Shown here piece by piece: positions 11,646 to 29,972 of a stretch of DNA of 64,000 bases. Origin of the DNA: Escherichia coli (GTDB taxonomy: Bacteria; Pseudomonadota; Gammaproteobacteria; Enterobacterales; Enterobacteriaceae); assembly GCF_050920415.1 (NCBI RefSeq), contig NZ_CP169309.1; one strand, written 5' to 3'. Position 1 is the stretch's first letter; each line of letters opens with the position of its first letter. Below the pieces are notes generated by a model. The model had not been told where the DNA came from. It did not search any database and was given only the letters and a program-made list of their open reading frames with translations. Position numbers and translations under genes: made by a program.

Positions 11646-11961
11646 ATCCCCCTCCCTTGATACCAATATTTACAACATGGCAAGCCTCTTTGAGCACCCA
11701 GTCAACAGCGTCTTTCCATGCTCCGGTTTCGGCTGGCGGATTCTCACGCTTTACCAGTTCATAGAAACGTACTGCTCTAACCAGTCCATCTGACGGTTTT
11801 GCCTGTAGTGCAGCCTGAGCTATGCGGTATGCCTGGAGTATACGGGCGTCGTTGATATCCATTCCGAACGGAATTTCTGATGATTGTGATTCTGCATCTT
11901 CAAGCCTGGCAATTTCTTTACGTAAGAAGTATTTCAACTCTTGTTTTTGTTTTCTGTTCAT
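11626..11961 (-). CDS. hypothetical protein (accessory operon)
   Basis: 111 aa; ATGA start/stop overlap with upstream zinc-finger gene; AAGGGA Shine-Dalgarno. Confidence 0.5.
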
Positions 11962-12290
11962 GCGTTTTTTCCCTTTTTGTCTGTCACTTCTCTCCTGATA
12001 ATTTCATTGCACAAATCCACGCACTCATTGCAGATGTAAACAGACGGTCCAGCAATCACCTTTGTGACTTCGTACTGGGATTTATTGCAGAAGCTGCAAT
12101 AAATCGTCTCCTCACCTGAAGTCCATGTTTTGCTGGTTTCGCCAGACATCAGTTGTTTGAGGTCTTTTTCACGACGAAGAACTATCTGGCCACATTCAGC
12201 TATTTTTTGGATGTTGACATTTTCTTCTTTCGCCAGCGCTTCCATCCGCTCAATCAGTCGCTGCGCTTTTTCTCTGTCAATGTGTTGCAT
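11958..12290 (-). CDS. small protein with C-terminal ClpX-type C4 zinc-finger domain
   Basis: Segment [40 protein letters not shown] closely matches the recalled N-terminal zinc-binding domain of ClpX ([40 protein letters not shown]); no AAA+ domain follows. AAGGGGGA Shine-Dalgarno. Confidence 0.6.
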
Positions 12291-12353: not shown

Positions 12354-12665
12354 TTATTCGGGAAATAACGCCCGGATATTTCCGGCCATCTGACTGGTTA
12401 TCTGTGCGGCTGATACTGGCTGTGACGCGGGGCGTTCTGTCCTGGGTTGTGTCACTGATAACGCCTCATCATCAGCCCATGCAGCCAGTCGGTAAGCCTC
12501 TGCCGGATTCATTTTCAGTAGTGCCAGCCCGGCCAGAAAAGCCACGCGTTGACCACTTTTGCGGGCTTCTGGTGTAAGGCTGTCCAGCCAGGCGCATGCT
12601 TCGCCTTCGTTCTTGACGGCGGCGGGCTTCAGATAGAAACTTATCCGTCTGGTTGGTGTCGTCAT
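12354..12665 (-). CDS. ParR-like centromere-binding protein (ribbon-helix-helix)
   Basis: 103 aa; RRISFYLKP...WLDSL...FLAGLALL...NIRALFPE resembles recalled plasmid R1 ParR (RRTIAFKLNP...TLDSI...LTAGLALY...ILRSLFPKE); directly downstream of the ParM-like gene with AAGGAG Shine-Dalgarno. Confidence 0.6.
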   Translation of the reverse strand: MTTPTRRISFYLKPAAVKNEGEACAWLDSLTPEARKSGQRVAFLAGLALLKMNPAEAYRLAAWADDEALSVTQPRTERPASQPVSAAQITSQMAGNIRALFPE

Positions 12666-12669
12666 TGGC

Positions 12670-13629
12670 TTACTCCTTGTCCATTGCGTACAGCCCATTA
12701 ACCAGAGCAAACTGTGGCACCCCGTCCGCGATGAAAGTCGCATTAACTCCGCAGGCTTCGCGGATAGCGGGTGCCACAATCTCCGCCCCGCCACCGACAA
12801 CCATCACCCGCCCGTAACCCGAAAAACCCGCCAGCGCGCGGATCACGCGTTGTTTCAGTGTTTCTTCCTTTTCACGAATAACCGCCATCAGGCTGGCGTA
12901 ATGCGCGTCATTGTGGATGTGCTGGCGCAGCCAGGCTTCATCATGGCGATGTTCAATAATGGTATTGGCGATGTGGTGACTGGTGCGCATACCGTTAGTG
13001 GCCATCACCGACAGCACGGCATCGGCCATCAGTGAAACACCTACGTGTGGATCGCAAAACACCTGGCTGATACCTGCCAGTTGTCCCTGAACCTTTGCCA
13101 CATCCAGCGTGGTTCCGCCCAAATCCACAATCAGCAGGGATTCAAACGGACTCATGTCAGCCAGTGCCTTAAAGCCTGCCGGAATGGATTCAGGCATAAC
13201 CCGCACGTTACGGATAGTGAATGCCTCACCGTTCTGGTACTCCACCGGGCGCATAACGTTCGCTTTTTTGCGGTTGATGTTGGCCATGTCCGGCTGTGCG
13301 TTTGTGTCGAAATACTCGCTCAGTGGCAGGGTGACAACCACATCCACCTCCTGTGGCGTGATGCCTGATTTGACCAGCGCGTGATGAATGGCAATGACAT
13401 TCACATCGCTGTATTGGTATTGCGTGTCGGTCGTCTGGACAAAGCGATCGCTGACCGGATCAAAACCATAGCGCACGCCATCAAGCATGTAGTTCGCGGG
13501 CTGCGTGCCACCGAACGGCGCAGACCATTCCGACTTGAAGCTGTTCGGGCTGATGGCGTTGCGGCGTTCGCCGTTCTCAGTCCATGCCAGCTTGATGTTG
13601 GTGGAGCCGTCGTCGATACAAATTTTCAT
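12670..13629 (-). CDS. ParM/StbA-like actin-fold segregation ATPase
   Basis: 319 aa with the ParM nucleotide-binding motifs: MKICIDDGSTNIKLAW (phosphate 1), IVDLGGTTLDV (connect/adenosine), VMVVGGGAEI (phosphate 2). Confidence 0.8.
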   Translation of the reverse strand: MKICIDDGSTNIKLAWTENGERRNAISPNSFKSEWSAPFGGTQPANYMLDGVRYGFDPVSDRFVQTTDTQYQYSDVNVIAIHHALVKSGITPQEVDVVVTLPLSEYFDTNAQPDMANINRKKANVMRPVEYQNGEAFTIRNVRVMPESIPAGFKALADMSPFESLLIVDLGGTTLDVAKVQGQLAGISQVFCDPHVGVSLMADAVLSVMATNGMRTSHHIANTIIEHRHDEAWLRQHIHNDAHYASLMAVIREKEETLKQRVIRALAGFSGYGRVMVVGGGAEIVAPAIREACGVNATFIADGVPQFALVNGLYAMDKE

Positions 13630-13660
13630 GTCGCTTTTCCTTATGTTGATTAATTAATCG

Positions 13661-13760
13661 TTTACGGGATTCTGAAATCCCGTTTTTGCCTGCTTTGTGC
13701 GCGCTTCATATATCACTGCGCGTTTTTTGCTCATTTACGGGATTCGTGAGTCCCGTTTCT
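13661..13760. repeat. two direct copies of a 27-bp hairpin-containing repeat upstream of the ParM-like gene
   Basis: TTTACGGGATTCTGAAATCCCGTTTTT (13661-13687) and TTTACGGGATTCGTGAGTCCCGTTTCT (13734-13760), 22/27 identical, each an ACGGGA/TCCCGT inverted repeat; the second lies inside the 3' end of gene A. Confidence 0.5.
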
Positions 13761-16528
13761 GTCTGTTTTTTGTTTCCGCTGGTCAGGCCACCCCGCAGCA
13801 GGTCTGCTTTGCGGCTGGCGCGTTCAGTGGTTTCACTGATTCTCTGTGCGTGCTCTGCGTCGCGGATGGCGCGCAGCATGTCAGAAAGCACAGTAACGGG
13901 TGTTTTCATGGTGTTCTGGTCCTGCTGAAGTGTGGATGCCAGGCGTGCGGCGGCTTCAGGGTCTGATGCCCCCAGCTGTGCCAGATAGCTGGCGACCGGG
14001 TTATGGCGGATCTCCGTGCTGCTTACGCCATGATTACGGCTCAGGCGCTGCCAGAGCTGCGTGATTCGGCTGTCCGGGCGGGTATCCGGTTTGCGTACAA
14101 TTTCAAATCCCTGCGGTGCAATGATGCTGCCGTCAACGTACAGACTGCCGCCCCGTAACAGGTGCTGCATCTGTTGTTCACCGATATGCAGGCCGAGAGA
14201 TTCAGCAGACTCCCGCCATTCTTTAGCGAGTAATTCGTGGTTATCAGGCAAAGGCCGCTGCTGTTTGCGGCTCTGTGTCCAGCTCTGCATTTCATCACTG
14301 CTGTTTTTTGCCTGTTTGTCACGAAGCGAACGCATCAGCGCCCGGCGTTCGTGCCGTTTCAGTGAGCGCATCCATTCGTTCACTTCAACGCCGTCAGGGA
14401 GCTGCGGCCACGGTGCTGGCCGTTCTTCCGGCTGTTCTGTCCCGTTGTTGTCCGTTTCCTGTGCACGGGGACAGTTATTGCCACGAGTCCAAGGGGCGGC
14501 AGGGCCGCCCTGAAGGTCAAAACCATTTTCGTGGGCGTTGTCTCCCGGTTCTGGTTTACGTCTTACCAGCTTCCAGTTATCCGGATGCGTGCACACACGG
14601 GAGGATTCCCCGATGAGTGGTGACCAGATCCCGTAAATCTGTACGCTCTGTTCGCCGTAATCGTTCAGCTCATCTGCGAGGTCGTAGGCGGTGCGAATCA
14701 GGTAGTCCTTGCGTGGAACAAGCACGCCACCCTGTTTTTCAATGTAGGTGGCAAAACACCCGGCATCGGCGGCAGCGAGTACCGCATCCATTGCATCATC
14801 TTTCAGCCGTTGCGGGCCTTCCGGATTGCGTGCCATCTGGCTGGCAAGGCGGCGCAGTTCACGCCACACCTGACGGGAGGGGATGCCAAAGAACTGGAAC
14901 TGACGGACCCGGTGAAGGCGCGCCCAGCCGATGGCGCGCTCCACGCTCTCGGCCATTGATTTTCCGGTTTCGTGGTCAACGCGTGGCTTGCCCGTTTTCG
15001 GGTCGATGCCATCCACGGCGCGGCTGTCCAGGTTCTTTCCGATGTAGGTGGCGATGTAGCTGGTTGGTGTGCCTTTTGAGCCGTCGACATACTCCGCCTT
15101 AAAACGCGGAGTTATGTCATCGCCCAGCTCGTGGCGGTCCTCCTGAATGGCAATATCGCAGACGTGGGACACGATGGTTTCAATCTCGTCCGGATGTGCA
15201 AAGACCATCATATGCCAGTGCACAGTGCCGTCATGGTGAGGCTCCACCGTGCGGATGCCATACCAGCGCAGGCCGTCGCGGTTCAGTTTTTTGCGGACCG
15301 CCGCAAAAAACGTGTTAACCAGGTAATCGCTGGAGTCGCGCATGGTGGCCCCGTTCCATTTGGGGTTCGGATGACCGTTCTCCGTTGTTGCGTGGTATTT
15401 TGACGGGCAGGTGACGGTCAGAAACACCGCTCTGTCGCCACGGGCTTCGGCCAGAAGTTCCAGTCCCTTCATGGTGGCCATCATTTCTGCCTTACGGTGA
15501 ACCGGGTTACTTACTCCCGCGTAATACACCGTCTCGAGATCAATCGTGAACCCGTCTTCATTTTCCAGCATGAAACTTTTCAGGAAATCGCGTGTTTTCT
15601 CGCGCTGTGCGCGAAACTCGCTTAACGCGTCCTGGCTCAGATAGGGGGATGTTTTTCTGGAAACCAGACAGGCGGCGCGGAGTTGTTCTTCCCGCCACTC
15701 ACAACGTAACAGCCACAGTTTGCGTTTCCACCATTCCGCACAGGTCAAGCGAAGGATTGCGCCCGGCAGCAGCTCCGTGTCCGGTTCGTTCCTCCGGTCT
15801 TTGTCTGTTGTCAGTGCGTCATAATGTGGAGGCATGGCGTGCAGGTGTAACGCCATGCGGGCCAGCATCTGATAAGCCTTCAGGGTTACATCCATGGTCA
15901 GCTCGCCATCAGTCGCGCCAAAGCCATCGCAGAGTTTTTCGAAGGTGCTGCTGAACATCGCCGCCGTCATGGTGGCCAGCGTCTGTATCTGGTGTTTGTT
16001 GAGCTGCGGCAGGTAAAGCAAATCGTCCAGGCGTTCGCGTCCGGCAAGGGAGCGATAACCCGGTGTCAGCCAGCGGTGGTCGGTGCGGTCCAGACGTTCG
16101 AATATTTTGCGCAGGGTTCCGCACGCGTAGCGTTCAGCCTGCCAGCTCTTTTTGCCTTTCCGGCGATCGGCTTCCTGTTTTTTGCGCAGGAAGGAGAGGT
16201 GGCGAATAAGCGGATCGCGCAGATAGGACGGCAGCAGGCGCAGCGAGGCCATGGCTTCATCCACCGCGCCACGTGCCTGTTTTCTGGCGTCTCCTGCCAG
16301 TGTGATGGTTTTGTCCTGTTTTTCCTGTGCGTCCAGGCTTTTATTAATCAGGTTGCCCAGCGGCGTGGCGGAGAACGCCGCATCAGCCATTTCCTGGCGG
16401 CGCTCGTTCTCTGCCCGGTAGGCATCCAGCCAGGAGGAAAGCGCGGATTCAGGAGCGGGGATCCCCGTTCCTTCACGCCCCACTGCGTGGCGCGGTTGTT
16501 GCCAGTCCCTGATGTACTCTGCCGTCAT
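13706..16528 (-). CDS. replication initiation protein A (rolling-circle nicking endonuclease, P2 gpA-like)
   Basis: 940 aa; HUH-type motif region GTVHWHMMVF and tyrosine motif TSYIATYIGK; position between early genes and accessory region. Confidence 0.8.
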   Translation of the reverse strand: MTAEYIRDWQQPRHAVGREGTGIPAPESALSSWLDAYRAENERRQEMADAAFSATPLGNLINKSLDAQEKQDKTITLAGDARKQARGAVDEAMASLRLLPSYLRDPLIRHLSFLRKKQEADRRKGKKSWQAERYACGTLRKIFERLDRTDHRWLTPGYRSLAGRERLDDLLYLPQLNKHQIQTLATMTAAMFSSTFEKLCDGFGATDGELTMDVTLKAYQMLARMALHLHAMPPHYDALTTDKDRRNEPDTELLPGAILRLTCAEWWKRKLWLLRCEWREEQLRAACLVSRKTSPYLSQDALSEFRAQREKTRDFLKSFMLENEDGFTIDLETVYYAGVSNPVHRKAEMMATMKGLELLAEARGDRAVFLTVTCPSKYHATTENGHPNPKWNGATMRDSSDYLVNTFFAAVRKKLNRDGLRWYGIRTVEPHHDGTVHWHMMVFAHPDEIETIVSHVCDIAIQEDRHELGDDITPRFKAEYVDGSKGTPTSYIATYIGKNLDSRAVDGIDPKTGKPRVDHETGKSMAESVERAIGWARLHRVRQFQFFGIPSRQVWRELRRLASQMARNPEGPQRLKDDAMDAVLAAADAGCFATYIEKQGGVLVPRKDYLIRTAYDLADELNDYGEQSVQIYGIWSPLIGESSRVCTHPDNWKLVRRKPEPGDNAHENGFDLQGGPAAPWTRGNNCPRAQETDNNGTEQPEERPAPWPQLPDGVEVNEWMRSLKRHERRALMRSLRDKQAKNSSDEMQSWTQSRKQQRPLPDNHELLAKEWRESAESLGLHIGEQQMQHLLRGGSLYVDGSIIAPQGFEIVRKPDTRPDSRITQLWQRLSRNHGVSSTEIRHNPVASYLAQLGASDPEAAARLASTLQQDQNTMKTPVTVLSDMLRAIRDAEHAQRISETTERASRKADLLRGGLTSGNKKQTETGLTNPVNEQKTRSDI

Positions 16529-16534
16529 AGTGAT

Positions 16535-16900
16535 TTACTTCGTCATGCCATTCAGGGTGTCGCGGCAGACTGTAGCCAGCCGCTGAATTTCCAGCACGGT
16601 GTCTTCTGTGTCGGCATGGCGATGTGTGATGCGGATGCTGTCGGCAATCACATCGACGATTGCAGAGGATGGGCGCTGGTAAATGCCAATAACGGACGGG
16701 GTGCCACCTTCAATGCGGTAAAGCCTGTAATTTCCCTCGTGGCTGTCAATCATGTAGCGACCATCAATAACAATCTTTCCGTCAGCGAGCTGCGGTACAG
16801 GCAGGGATTTCAGGTACATGTCATAACGATCACGCACGCGAGCGGCAAGATCACGTTCTGTGTTGAGCAGGTATTCAAGAAAGTCGTTGGCGAGAATCAT
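16535..16900 (-). CDS. hypothetical early protein
   Basis: 121-aa ORF immediately upstream of A on the same strand. Confidence 0.45.
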   Translation of the reverse strand: MILANDFLEYLLNTERDLAARVRDRYDMYLKSLPVPQLADGKIVIDGRYMIDSHEGNYRLYRIEGGTPSVIGIYQRPSSAIVDVIADSIRITHRHADTEDTVLEIQRLATVCRDTLNGMTK

Positions 16901-28457: not shown

Positions 28458-29972
28458 ATGCAACAGTCTACCCCGTATCTCTCATTTCGCGGCATCGGTA
28501 AAACGTTTCCCGGCGTTAAGGCGCTGACGGATATTAGTTTTGACTGCTATGCCGGTCAGGTTCATGCGTTGATGGGTGAAAATGGCGCAGGAAAATCAAC
28601 TCTCTTAAAAATCCTCAGCGGCAACTATGCGCCAACCACGGGTTCTGTAGTGATTAATGGGCAGGAAATGTCCTTTTCCGACACAACCGCAGCACTTAAC
28701 GCGGGTGTGGCGATTATTTATCAGGAACTGCATCTCGTGCCGGAAATGACCGTCGCGGAAAACATCTATCTCGGCCAGCTTCCTCATAAAGGCGGCATTG
28801 TGAATCGCTCATTGCTGAATTATGAGGCGGGTTTACAACTTAAGCATCTTGGTATGGATATTGACCCGGACACGCCGCTGAAATATCTCTCCATTGGTCA
28901 GTGGCAGATGGTTGAAATTGCCAAAGCGCTGGCGCGTAACGCCAAAATTATCGCCTTTGATGAGCCAACCAGCTCCCTCTCTGCCCGTGAAATCGACAAT
29001 CTTTTCCGCGTTATTCGTGAACTGCGAAAAGAGGGGCGGGTGATCTTATACGTTTCTCACCGTATGGAAGAAATATTTGCCCTCAGCGATGCCATCACCG
29101 TCTTTAAAGATGGGCGTTATGTCAAAACCTTTACTGATATGCAGCAGGTTGACCACGACGCCCTGGTGCAGGCGATGGTCGGGCGCGACATCGGAGATAT
29201 CTACGGTTGGCAACCGCGTAGTTATGGCGAGGAGCGGCTGCGTCTTGATGCTGTGAAAGCACCAGGCGTGCGTACGCCAATAAGTCTGGCGGTTCGCAGT
29301 GGAGAAATTGTCGGTCTGTTTGGTCTGGTCGGGGCAGGGCGTAGCGAATTAATGAAAGGCATGTTTGGCGGTACGCAAATCACCGCCGGTCAGGTTTATA
29401 TCGACCAACGGCCGATTGATATTCGTAAACCGAGCCACGCTATTGCCGCAGGCATGATGCTCTGCCCGGAAGATCGCAAAGCGGAAGGCATTATTCCTGT
29501 GCACTCCGTTCGCGACAATATCAACATCAGTGCCAGACGCAAACATGTGCTCGGCGGTTGTGTAATCAACAACGGTTGGGAAGAAAACAATGCCGATCAC
29601 CACATTCGTTCGCTCAACATCAAAACGCCGGGCGCAGAGCAACTGATCATGAATCTTTCAGGCGGAAATCAGCAAAAAGCCATTCTGGGCCGCTGGTTAT
29701 CGGAAGAGATGAAGGTCATTTTGCTGGATGAACCTACGCGCGGCATTGATGTTGGTGCTAAGCATGAAATTTACAACGTGATTTATGCGCTGGCAGCGCA
29801 GGGCGTGGCGGTGCTGTTTGCCTCCAGCGACTTACCTGAAGTCCTCGGCGTTGCCGACCGGATTGTGGTGATGCGCGAAGGCGAAATCGCCGGTGAATTG
29901 TTACACGAGCAGGCAGATGAGCGTCAGGCATTAAGCCTTGCAATGCCTAAAGTCAGCCAGGCAGTTGCCTGA
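28458..29972 (+). CDS. araG: L-arabinose ABC transporter ATP-binding protein (duplicated ABC domains)
   Basis: 504 aa starting [10 protein letters not shown]; two Walker A motifs GENGAGKST and GLVGAGRSE. Confidence 0.9.

Follow-up and report, generated by a model that had tools for sequence, protein, structure and literature searches.

Anatomy and evolutionary history of a long P2-family replication gene A in a P88-like prophage of Escherichia coli

A 64,000-nucleotide (nt) stretch of Escherichia coli DNA (contig NZ_CP169309.1; hereafter the window) encodes on its minus strand, at 13706-16528, a P2-family replication protein of 940 residues, the length of which raises the question of where the excess over the gene A protein (gpA) of phage P2 lies and whether it forms a domain. 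The original prediction, made from the letters of the DNA, took the extra length to be a low-complexity, charged C-terminal region overlapping a hairpin repeat, which might serve as an added interaction domain. The open reading frame (ORF) is real, with 940 codons plus a stop codon, and the length of about 760 residues assumed there for P2 gpA is right; in AF063097 the protein has 761 residues (2,286 nt), which leaves an excess of 179. Comparison with relatives shows that the greater length is made up of a predicted helical N-terminal insertion that is common to many relatives, scattered small insertions and deletions (indels) and, mainly, a longer region after the replication origin that lies within the gene. 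We give this overall account of the anatomy of gene A, together with its evolutionary history as described below, a probability of roughly three in four, the inferred steps being excluded.

Location of the additional residues and identity of the gene

The excess was apportioned by counting from the NNC motif of the origin-encoded peptide AAPWTRGNNC (residues 677-686), which is common to all family members, and the A protein of phage 186 (694 residues) was included in the comparison:

Before the origin: 686 residues in the 940-residue protein, 626 in P2 gpA, 617 in 186 A
After the origin: 254 residues in the 940-residue protein, 135 in P2 gpA, 77 in 186 A

Relative to P2, the excess is +119 after the origin and +60 before it. 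BLASTP aligns residues 687-800 with P2 residues 627-740 at equal length, beyond which 21 residues remain in P2 and 140 in the 940-residue protein; the +119 is therefore a single contiguous C-terminal extension. Assigning the extra length to the C terminus was thus right for this block, i.e. for two thirds of the excess, but not for the 60 residues before the origin, and pairwise alignment with P2 does not dissolve the excess as a whole into scattered small insertions. By BLASTP and alignment, the +60 consists of a net gain of about +35 at the N terminus and about +25 in small scattered indels. The N-terminal net value reflects an insertion at residues 20-76, less 20 extra N-terminal residues that P2 has of its own. 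This insertion, which is absent from the original prediction, can be described as follows, the model confidence being the predicted local distance difference test score (pLDDT):

16301-16471, minus strand: N-terminal insertion, residues 20-76, a predicted helical hairpin; a gap in P2 and 186; AlphaFold2 helices at 28-54 and 56-85, pLDDT about 73

The insertion is also present in shorter relatives, e.g. a Salmonella type of 761 residues, which equals P2 gpA in length while having some 60 residues more ahead of the origin and some 59 fewer beyond it. Total length is, as this relative illustrates, a poor guide in the gpA family, in which the post-origin region spans 76-254 residues.

The remainder of the protein is that of a typical family member, with a catalytic domain carrying the histidine-hydrophobic residue-histidine (HUH) motif and paired tyrosines:

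13706-16528, minus strand: gene A, P2-family rolling-circle replication initiator ('replication endonuclease'), 940 codons plus stop (PF05840; homology to P88)
15020-15994, minus strand: Phage_GPA catalytic domain, residues 179-503 (E=1.7e-129 to Pfam PF05840, all 321 profile positions covered; pLDDT 85-95)
15212-15220, minus strand: HUH motif H437-W-H439, in the sequence HHDGTVHWHMM
15044-15058, minus strand: paired active-site tyrosines Y491 and Y495 (YIATY), aligned by BLASTP with P2 Y450 and Y454

The match to PF05840 scores 431.9 bits against a curated cut-off of 31.4, and PHROG 91 ('nicking at origin of replication') matches with E=1.7e-273. H437, W438 and H439 are invariant in 15 aligned sequences, P2 and 186 among them, as are Y491 and Y495 (Y-x-x-x-Y) in alignments that include both phages; P2 Y450 and Y454 are the catalytic tyrosines of P2 gpA. 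In the full-length AlphaFold model the mean pLDDT is 73, with 85-95 in the body. A fold search (Foldseek) with a model of the catalytic core placed HUH nucleases on top but weakly, the Helitron transposase 7lcc with E=0.03 and a probability of 0.92 being the best and adeno-associated virus (AAV) Rep and NS1 also among them, none at E<=0.001; a sequence search of the PDB returned no relative of the protein.

Over residues 1-940 the protein shares 98.7% identity with its counterpart in phage P88, the replication protein AIZ95124 (AIZ95124.1), and the first ~22.6 kb of the window correspond to a P88/520873-like prophage. The DNA that encodes the post-origin tail is present in 1,370 of 5,426 complete E. 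coli genomes, where the annotation is invariably "replication endonuclease", and is chromosomal in 1,531 of the 1,533 places where it occurs; among phage records, the tail is confined to 14 P88-like ones, at an identity of at least 93%. Judged from its sequence, the ORF is an intact HUH-type two-tyrosine rolling-circle initiator that belongs to an integrated prophage of P88-like type (Xuanwuvirus, Peduoviridae). The gene is not new and its annotation is correct, 940 residues being the usual length for the genus Xuanwuvirus, and as an extremely common prophage replication gene it matters little in itself.

The same data bear on whether the length is artefactual, two ORFs having been merged through a frameshift in sequencing or an incorrect start codon. 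An A6 homopolymer near the 3' end does yield length variants, and database clusters of 910-916 residues reflect alternative start calls; however, the same 940-residue ORF is annotated in phage P88, 'replication endonuclease' clusters of 940-946 residues hold thousands of member sequences and the tail DNA occurs at an identity of at least 95% in about 1,300 complete genomes. These independent assemblies refute the artefact, the probability of which we consider negligible.

The intragenic origin and the tail that follows it

The origin and the regions encoded at and beyond it are arranged as follows, with divergence given as the synonymous rate (dS) and the ratio of nonsynonymous to synonymous rates (dN/dS):

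14494-14510, minus strand: GC-rich inverted repeat GGGCGGC-CCT-GCCGCCC, abutting the nick motif on its 5' side (7-bp DNA hairpin, -9.4 kcal/mol)
14471-14493, minus strand: origin core CTTGGACTCGTGGCAATAACTGT, aligned to the annotated nick sites of P2 (29892) and 186 (28576)
14408-14548, minus strand: predicted disordered linker, residues 661-707, encoded by the origin region (pLDDT 25-43)
14084-14407, minus strand: post-origin region shared with P2, residues 708-815 (BLASTP to P2 reaches residue 800; dN/dS 0.17-0.34)
Residues 716-755, within that region: basic helix with a RHERRAL-type motif, in almost all lineages
Residues 764-815, within that region: small alpha/beta module (pLDDT ~80-90, dN/dS 0.17), also present in P2 gpA, which ends soon after it
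13772-14083, minus strand: helical extension past the end of P2 gpA, residues 816-919 (helices 820-833, 844-855, 857-870 and 877-913)
13709-13771, minus strand: frame-variable read-through into a partition (par) cassette, residues 920-940 (includes the A6 run 13766-13771)

By homology with P2 and 186, the initiator would nick the origin within its own coding sequence and prime rolling-circle replication there. In the alignment the P2 nick at 29892 falls at about 14490 of the window, within a core common to P2/186-type origins (...GGAsTyyTGkCAATAACTGT). Stems equivalent to the GC-rich repeat, but of other sequence, occur in P2, 186 and two further relatives (L010 and L011), and in five of six lineages the nick has a hairpin on its 5' side; since the stems differ in length, a formal covariation count was not feasible and each was folded separately. 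In the sixth lineage, the 186-like recombinant L004, the hairpin (L004:6016-6060) is disrupted, at -2.1 kcal/mol versus -6 to -9.9 kcal/mol in the other five, such that either the hairpin is dispensable or the L004 element is replication-defective.

Comparison with the ortholog of a Hafnia phage (L005; 62% protein identity) reveals a collapse of dS over codons 661-700, to 0.16 compared with 1.0-2.7 elsewhere, with dN/dS about 0.9. Silent sites are therefore constrained as well, as expected of a cis-acting DNA site. The predicted disordered linker of residues 661-707 is thus translated origin DNA joining the catalytic body to the tail, and its sequence is dictated by the DNA element.

Beyond the linker, residues 708-815 are modelled with pLDDT of 78-90 when the tail is predicted by itself and of about 80 in the full-length model, and L731 and G779 are nearly invariant in the family alignment. 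Within the extension proper, the helices of residues 816-865 recur in distant gpA lineages (P0127, P0133 and P0136; 28-32% identity), and the long helix of residues 866-916 is found only in P88-type and Hafnia-type proteins. Neither of the compositional terms used in the original prediction describes this part of the protein: the Shannon entropy of residues 801-940 is 3.96 bits, versus 3.83-3.93 in other segments of similar size, the mean entropy in 20-residue windows is 3.33 compared with 3.36 for the whole protein, and 25.7% of the residues are charged compared with 28.3% overall.

The end of the protein is of a different nature from the helices that precede it, as is evident from the cassette into which it runs:

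12670-13629, minus strand: parM, actin-like partition ATPase (Pfam StbA_N 1.8e-82, ParM_N 1.3e-68)
12354-12665, minus strand: stbB/parR-type plasmid stability protein (Pfam PF10784, Plasmid_stab_B, 4.9e-24), the right end of the exchangeable module described below
13737-13756, no strand assigned: palindrome O1, ACGGGATTCGTGAGTCCCGT (plus-strand letters), within the last codons of gene A
13664-13683, no strand assigned: palindrome O2, ACGGGATTCTGAAATCCCGT, in the gap between gene A and parM, 73 nt from O1

Over conserved DNA, the C-terminal residues before the stop codon are GNKKQTETGLTNPVNEQKTRSDI in the window, GNKNRQKRDSQIP in L004 and GTNNKQKRDS in L005. The A6 run at 13766-13771 is A5, A6 or A7 among close relatives, and a difference of one base shifts the frame of the last ~20 codons (L004, L005). 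Among 80 close relatives the ORF ends in at least 10 different ways, and the proteins stop 247-279 codons past the origin core. In a natural variant, L041 (IMG/VR contig IMGVR_UViG_2547132279_000014, L041:839-4957), a different A tail is followed by a 151-residue ORF that runs into O1 and acquires the same terminal peptide, ...TGFTNPVNEQKTRSDI, and homology to the window resumes at 13770. This arrangement implies that the par cassette starts at about 13770, and that residues 920-940 of the A protein are therefore read-through and not a domain. The hairpin repeat named in the original prediction consists of two 42-nt units, 13731-13772 and 13658-13699, so the overlap with gene A held for the first unit, which covers the last ~14-22 codons, but not for the second, which sits in the gap before parM.

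Could the whole of residues ~816-940 then be functionless, i.e. read-through of DNA that is open by chance and is tolerated in a region where the family accepts any length? The demonstrably frame-variable last 21 residues would fit such a reading, as would family tail lengths of 76 to 254 residues, the low confidence of the full-length model, which is least there, a dN/dS that is highest (0.43) in residues 866-916 and the lack of a match to a known domain or fold. On the other hand, residues 816-916 stay in frame relative to the 62%-identical Hafnia ortholog, with no stop codon at a dS of 1.0-2.1 and with dN/dS of 0.25 and 0.43 for residues 816-865 and 866-916, respectively; residues 816-865 recur in the distant lineages named above, and helices reach a pLDDT of 87 when the tail is modelled by itself. 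These rates indicate that residues 708-916 are under purifying selection and that the 816-919 block behaves as real protein, and we regard a functionless tail as unlikely. With respect to a domain in the tail, the expectation accordingly finds partial support in the discrete block of residues ~816-919, but none in residues 920-940, at the hairpin repeat, which are not a domain.

Fusion of gene A with a formerly separate downstream gene, either P2 orf91 or one of the 143-151-residue ORFs that overlap the end of gene A in relatives, is another conceivable source of the block. Small ORFs do overlap the A stop codon in short-tailed relatives, and P2 orf91 has that position; however, the tail matches P2 Orf91 only with E=6, the best match among all frames downstream of gene A in L006, L008, L010, L011, P2 and 186 has E=0.82, and the small downstream ORFs are unrelated to one another. 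Fusion is effectively refuted at this level of comparison and is, in our view, very improbable.

Pfam, NCBIfam and PHROGs hold no family for the tail, only whole-protein phage families being matched, no solved structure matches its fold, and an exhaustive search of 1.84 billion representative proteins finds only other gpA tails; three candidates from that search (P0123, P0138 and P0128) were rejected as spurious, being cadherin/Ig-repeat or junk-repeat proteins that were matched at many stretches. In 186 and a Salmonella lineage 76-77 residues after the origin suffice, and the tail is therefore probably dispensable for the nicking chemistry. No phage-encoded partner co-varies with it, L004 combining the tail with a 186-like early region and L041 a par cassette with no such tail; 'interaction domain' is therefore at most a plausible description of residues 816-919. 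That they form an accessory helical module, not needed for catalysis and acting through a host or DNA partner, has in our judgement a little less than an even chance.

A change of ancestry at the origin

The relatives compared indicate that the body and the tail of gene A have separate ancestries, because lineages have swapped all sequence downstream of the origin core. In L004, a 186-like phage with CI, CII, Fil and Dam upstream, the body has about 51-55% protein identity and dS is saturated, whereas the tail is 98-100% identical to that of the window, with dS of 0.03-0.14. The converse is seen in L006 and L008, whose bodies have 95-99% protein identity and whose tails are unrelated or just 25-50% identical. 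In four relatives (L004, L006, L008 and L011) similarity changes at gene nt 2031, 2058, 2062 and ~2056, the origin core occupying nt 2036-2058; the switch is hence within ~5 nt of the 23-nt core in both directions, i.e. the same body with another tail and another body with the same tail. The differences in dS across the junction are five- to ten-fold, beyond what relaxed protein constraint would give, and recombination is therefore required. Relative to L006, which has no par cassette, the replaced block extends from just past the origin to 12359, where homology resumes, immediately beyond parR; blastn blocks agree with the change points.

The position of the boundary raises the possibility that exchange at the origin was aided by the cleavage-joining activity of the initiator itself, a proposal that we make tentatively and that is, if anything, doubtful. 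In such a mechanism cleavage-joining at the nick would attach a catalytic body from one lineage to the tail of another, along with the accessory genes downstream of that tail, here parMR, and the disordered origin-encoded linker would let body/tail chimeras of this type stay functional. A wider form of the proposal, to which we are likewise inclined to give less credence than doubt, is that in P2-like phages the origin within gene A is a site-specific point of module exchange, operating by HUH cleavage-joining at the nick when related phages or prophages replicate together. Geminiviruses, M13 and rolling-circle plasmids are known to have hot spots of recombination at their nick sites. If correct, the proposal would couple phage mosaicism to replication, in analogy to the hot spots of geminiviruses and rolling-circle plasmids, and the sharp boundary at the origin together with the disordered linker, which is the most interesting by-product of the analysis, makes a testable case of accessory-module swapping by rolling-circle phages. 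A literature search in a searchable library returned nothing on exchange or a module boundary at the origin in P2-like phages, on the long tail of the P88-type replication protein or on parMR in P88-like phages; the P88 genome paper and the phiSM paper do not discuss the tail and the par cassette beyond annotation.

The partition cassette and comparison with known systems

The O1 and O2 palindromes conform to the pattern GGGAyT-N4-AryCCC, which has exactly 2 matches in the window compared with 0.29 expected by chance. In the Hafnia phage both palindromes are perfect and the 73-nt spacing is kept, with O1 reading GGGATTCA/TGAATCCC; between the two phages the arms are unchanged and the centres vary. 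Perfect palindromes in Hafnia, with arms that show no compensatory change, make protein-binding sites likelier than RNA stems. RNA folding of the repeats is modest (-9 to -11.6 kcal/mol). As intrinsic terminators they were rejected, being called on the plus strand only, antisense to all local genes. That O1 and O2 are ParR-binding, parC-like sites is, on this evidence, a proposition on which we are evenly divided.

The cassette also bears on a reading in which the long helix of residues 866-916 functionally belongs to it, for example with the DNA as part of the centromere or promoter, or with the peptide touching ParR or ParM and so linking the DNA-bound initiator to segregation. The association is suggestive in several respects. 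Tail and ParM occur together in the same 14 phage records and are both missing from about 370 others with gpA, the 186-like recombinant L004 and the Hafnia phage L005 both have the helix together with parM/parR, and four short-tailed lineages lack the helix and parM/parR alike; moreover, DNA identity to Hafnia, at 50-75% for the replication gene, climbs over the last ~60 codons towards the 85-93% of the cassette, and dS is lower there (1.04). Strict linkage looked strong until the L041 counterexample, in which a complete cassette with both palindromes stands behind a different ORF, lacking the helix, and homology resumes only at 13770. Helix-coding DNA is also absent upstream of plasmid parM genes, and the 14 phage records, coming from a single genus, are not independent observations. 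We thus consider a role of the helix in partition quite improbable. An origin of the tail DNA together with a plasmid par cassette was likewise rejected, since plasmids match just the first ~50 nt of parM, save six records that carry a P88-like element.

Several points weigh against the account proposed here and limit its individual parts. With respect to the exchange, the junctions are not resolvable within the 23-nt invariant core, and ordinary homologous recombination in this conserved island explains them as well as initiator-mediated exchange does; the L004 junction, moreover, breaks the hairpin, which questions either the essentiality of the hairpin or the viability of L004. With respect to the tail, any function of which is putative, no known domain or fold is matched, and the full-length model has a pLDDT of only 46-65 for residues 816-913. 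The dN/dS of up to 0.43 means that part of the extension (residues 866-916) may be only weakly constrained, and because the family works with tails of 76-77 residues the extension may contribute little. With respect to the palindromes, a promoter scan found no sigma-70-like promoter between them, and they are not shared with plasmid par loci.

Other features of the neighbourhood deserve mention. A 34,461-bp record from an E. coli of a cat (NZ_CP148288.1), which has the size of a P88-like genome and is deposited as a non-mobilizable plasmid, carries the tail and may be an episomal or excised form, fitting with the par cassette. Just downstream of the cassette, at 11958-12290 (minus strand), a gene that is conserved in relatives with no par genes (L006) encodes a 110-residue protein that lacks an ATPase domain, is essentially a C4 zinc finger of the ClpX type (Pfam zf-C4_ClpX, 8e-18) and could be a ClpX mimic or competitor. 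Upstream, a 121-residue ORF (16535-16900, minus strand) ends 7 nt before the A start codon; it has no Pfam match, its position is conserved in P88-type relatives and its Hafnia counterpart has a weak DUF5405 match. By tblastn the window holds no homologs of P2 gpB or Orf91, and no tRNA gene was found anywhere in its 64,000 nt. P88-like homology stops near 22.6 kb, the remainder being ~22600-64000; a broad megablast also gave many Stx-converting and lambdoid phage records, so that the part searched, or DNA close to it, may include a second prophage.

The closest known system, Escherichia phage P88 (genus Xuanwuvirus, Peduoviridae), has the same gene with no substantive difference and the same neighbours, i.e. 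the 121-residue ORF upstream and parM, stbB and the ClpX-zinc-finger gene downstream. P2 gpA and 186 A share with the 940-residue protein the catalytic domain, the HUH motif, the paired tyrosines and the intragenic origin and, in the case of P2, the post-origin basic helix and small alpha/beta module as well. They are, however, only 30-35% identical to it, and differ in lacking the ~57-residue N-terminal helical insertion and the C-terminal extension, which amounts to +119 residues relative to P2 and +177 relative to 186; whereas the 3' end of the 940-residue gene runs into a par cassette, P2 and 186 have none. More distantly, the HUH and tyrosine chemistry is that of the phiX174 gene A protein, AAV Rep, parvovirus NS1, Helitron transposase, the Reps of rolling-circle plasmids and geminivirus Rep. 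In phiX174 the origin likewise lies inside the initiator gene. No solved structure has a detectable sequence relationship to the 940-residue protein, which is much larger than these initiators and has long N- and C-terminal regions.

With regard to type II partition loci (R1/R100 parMRC = stbAB; StbA/StbB of phage D6), the ParM and StbB/ParR Pfam families are present here too, and the repeats directly upstream of parM occupy the position of parC, where an IncL/M plasmid and phage D6 also hold repeats. In contrast to the arrays of short direct iterons in plasmid parC, the cassette here has two 16-20-bp palindromes 73 nt apart, of unrelated sequence, and, unlike plasmid partition loci, its host element is almost always chromosomal (1,531 of 1,533 places). 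About a quarter of complete E. coli genomes hence carry a plasmid-type parMR with a palindromic element of its own in what is nearly always an integrated prophage.

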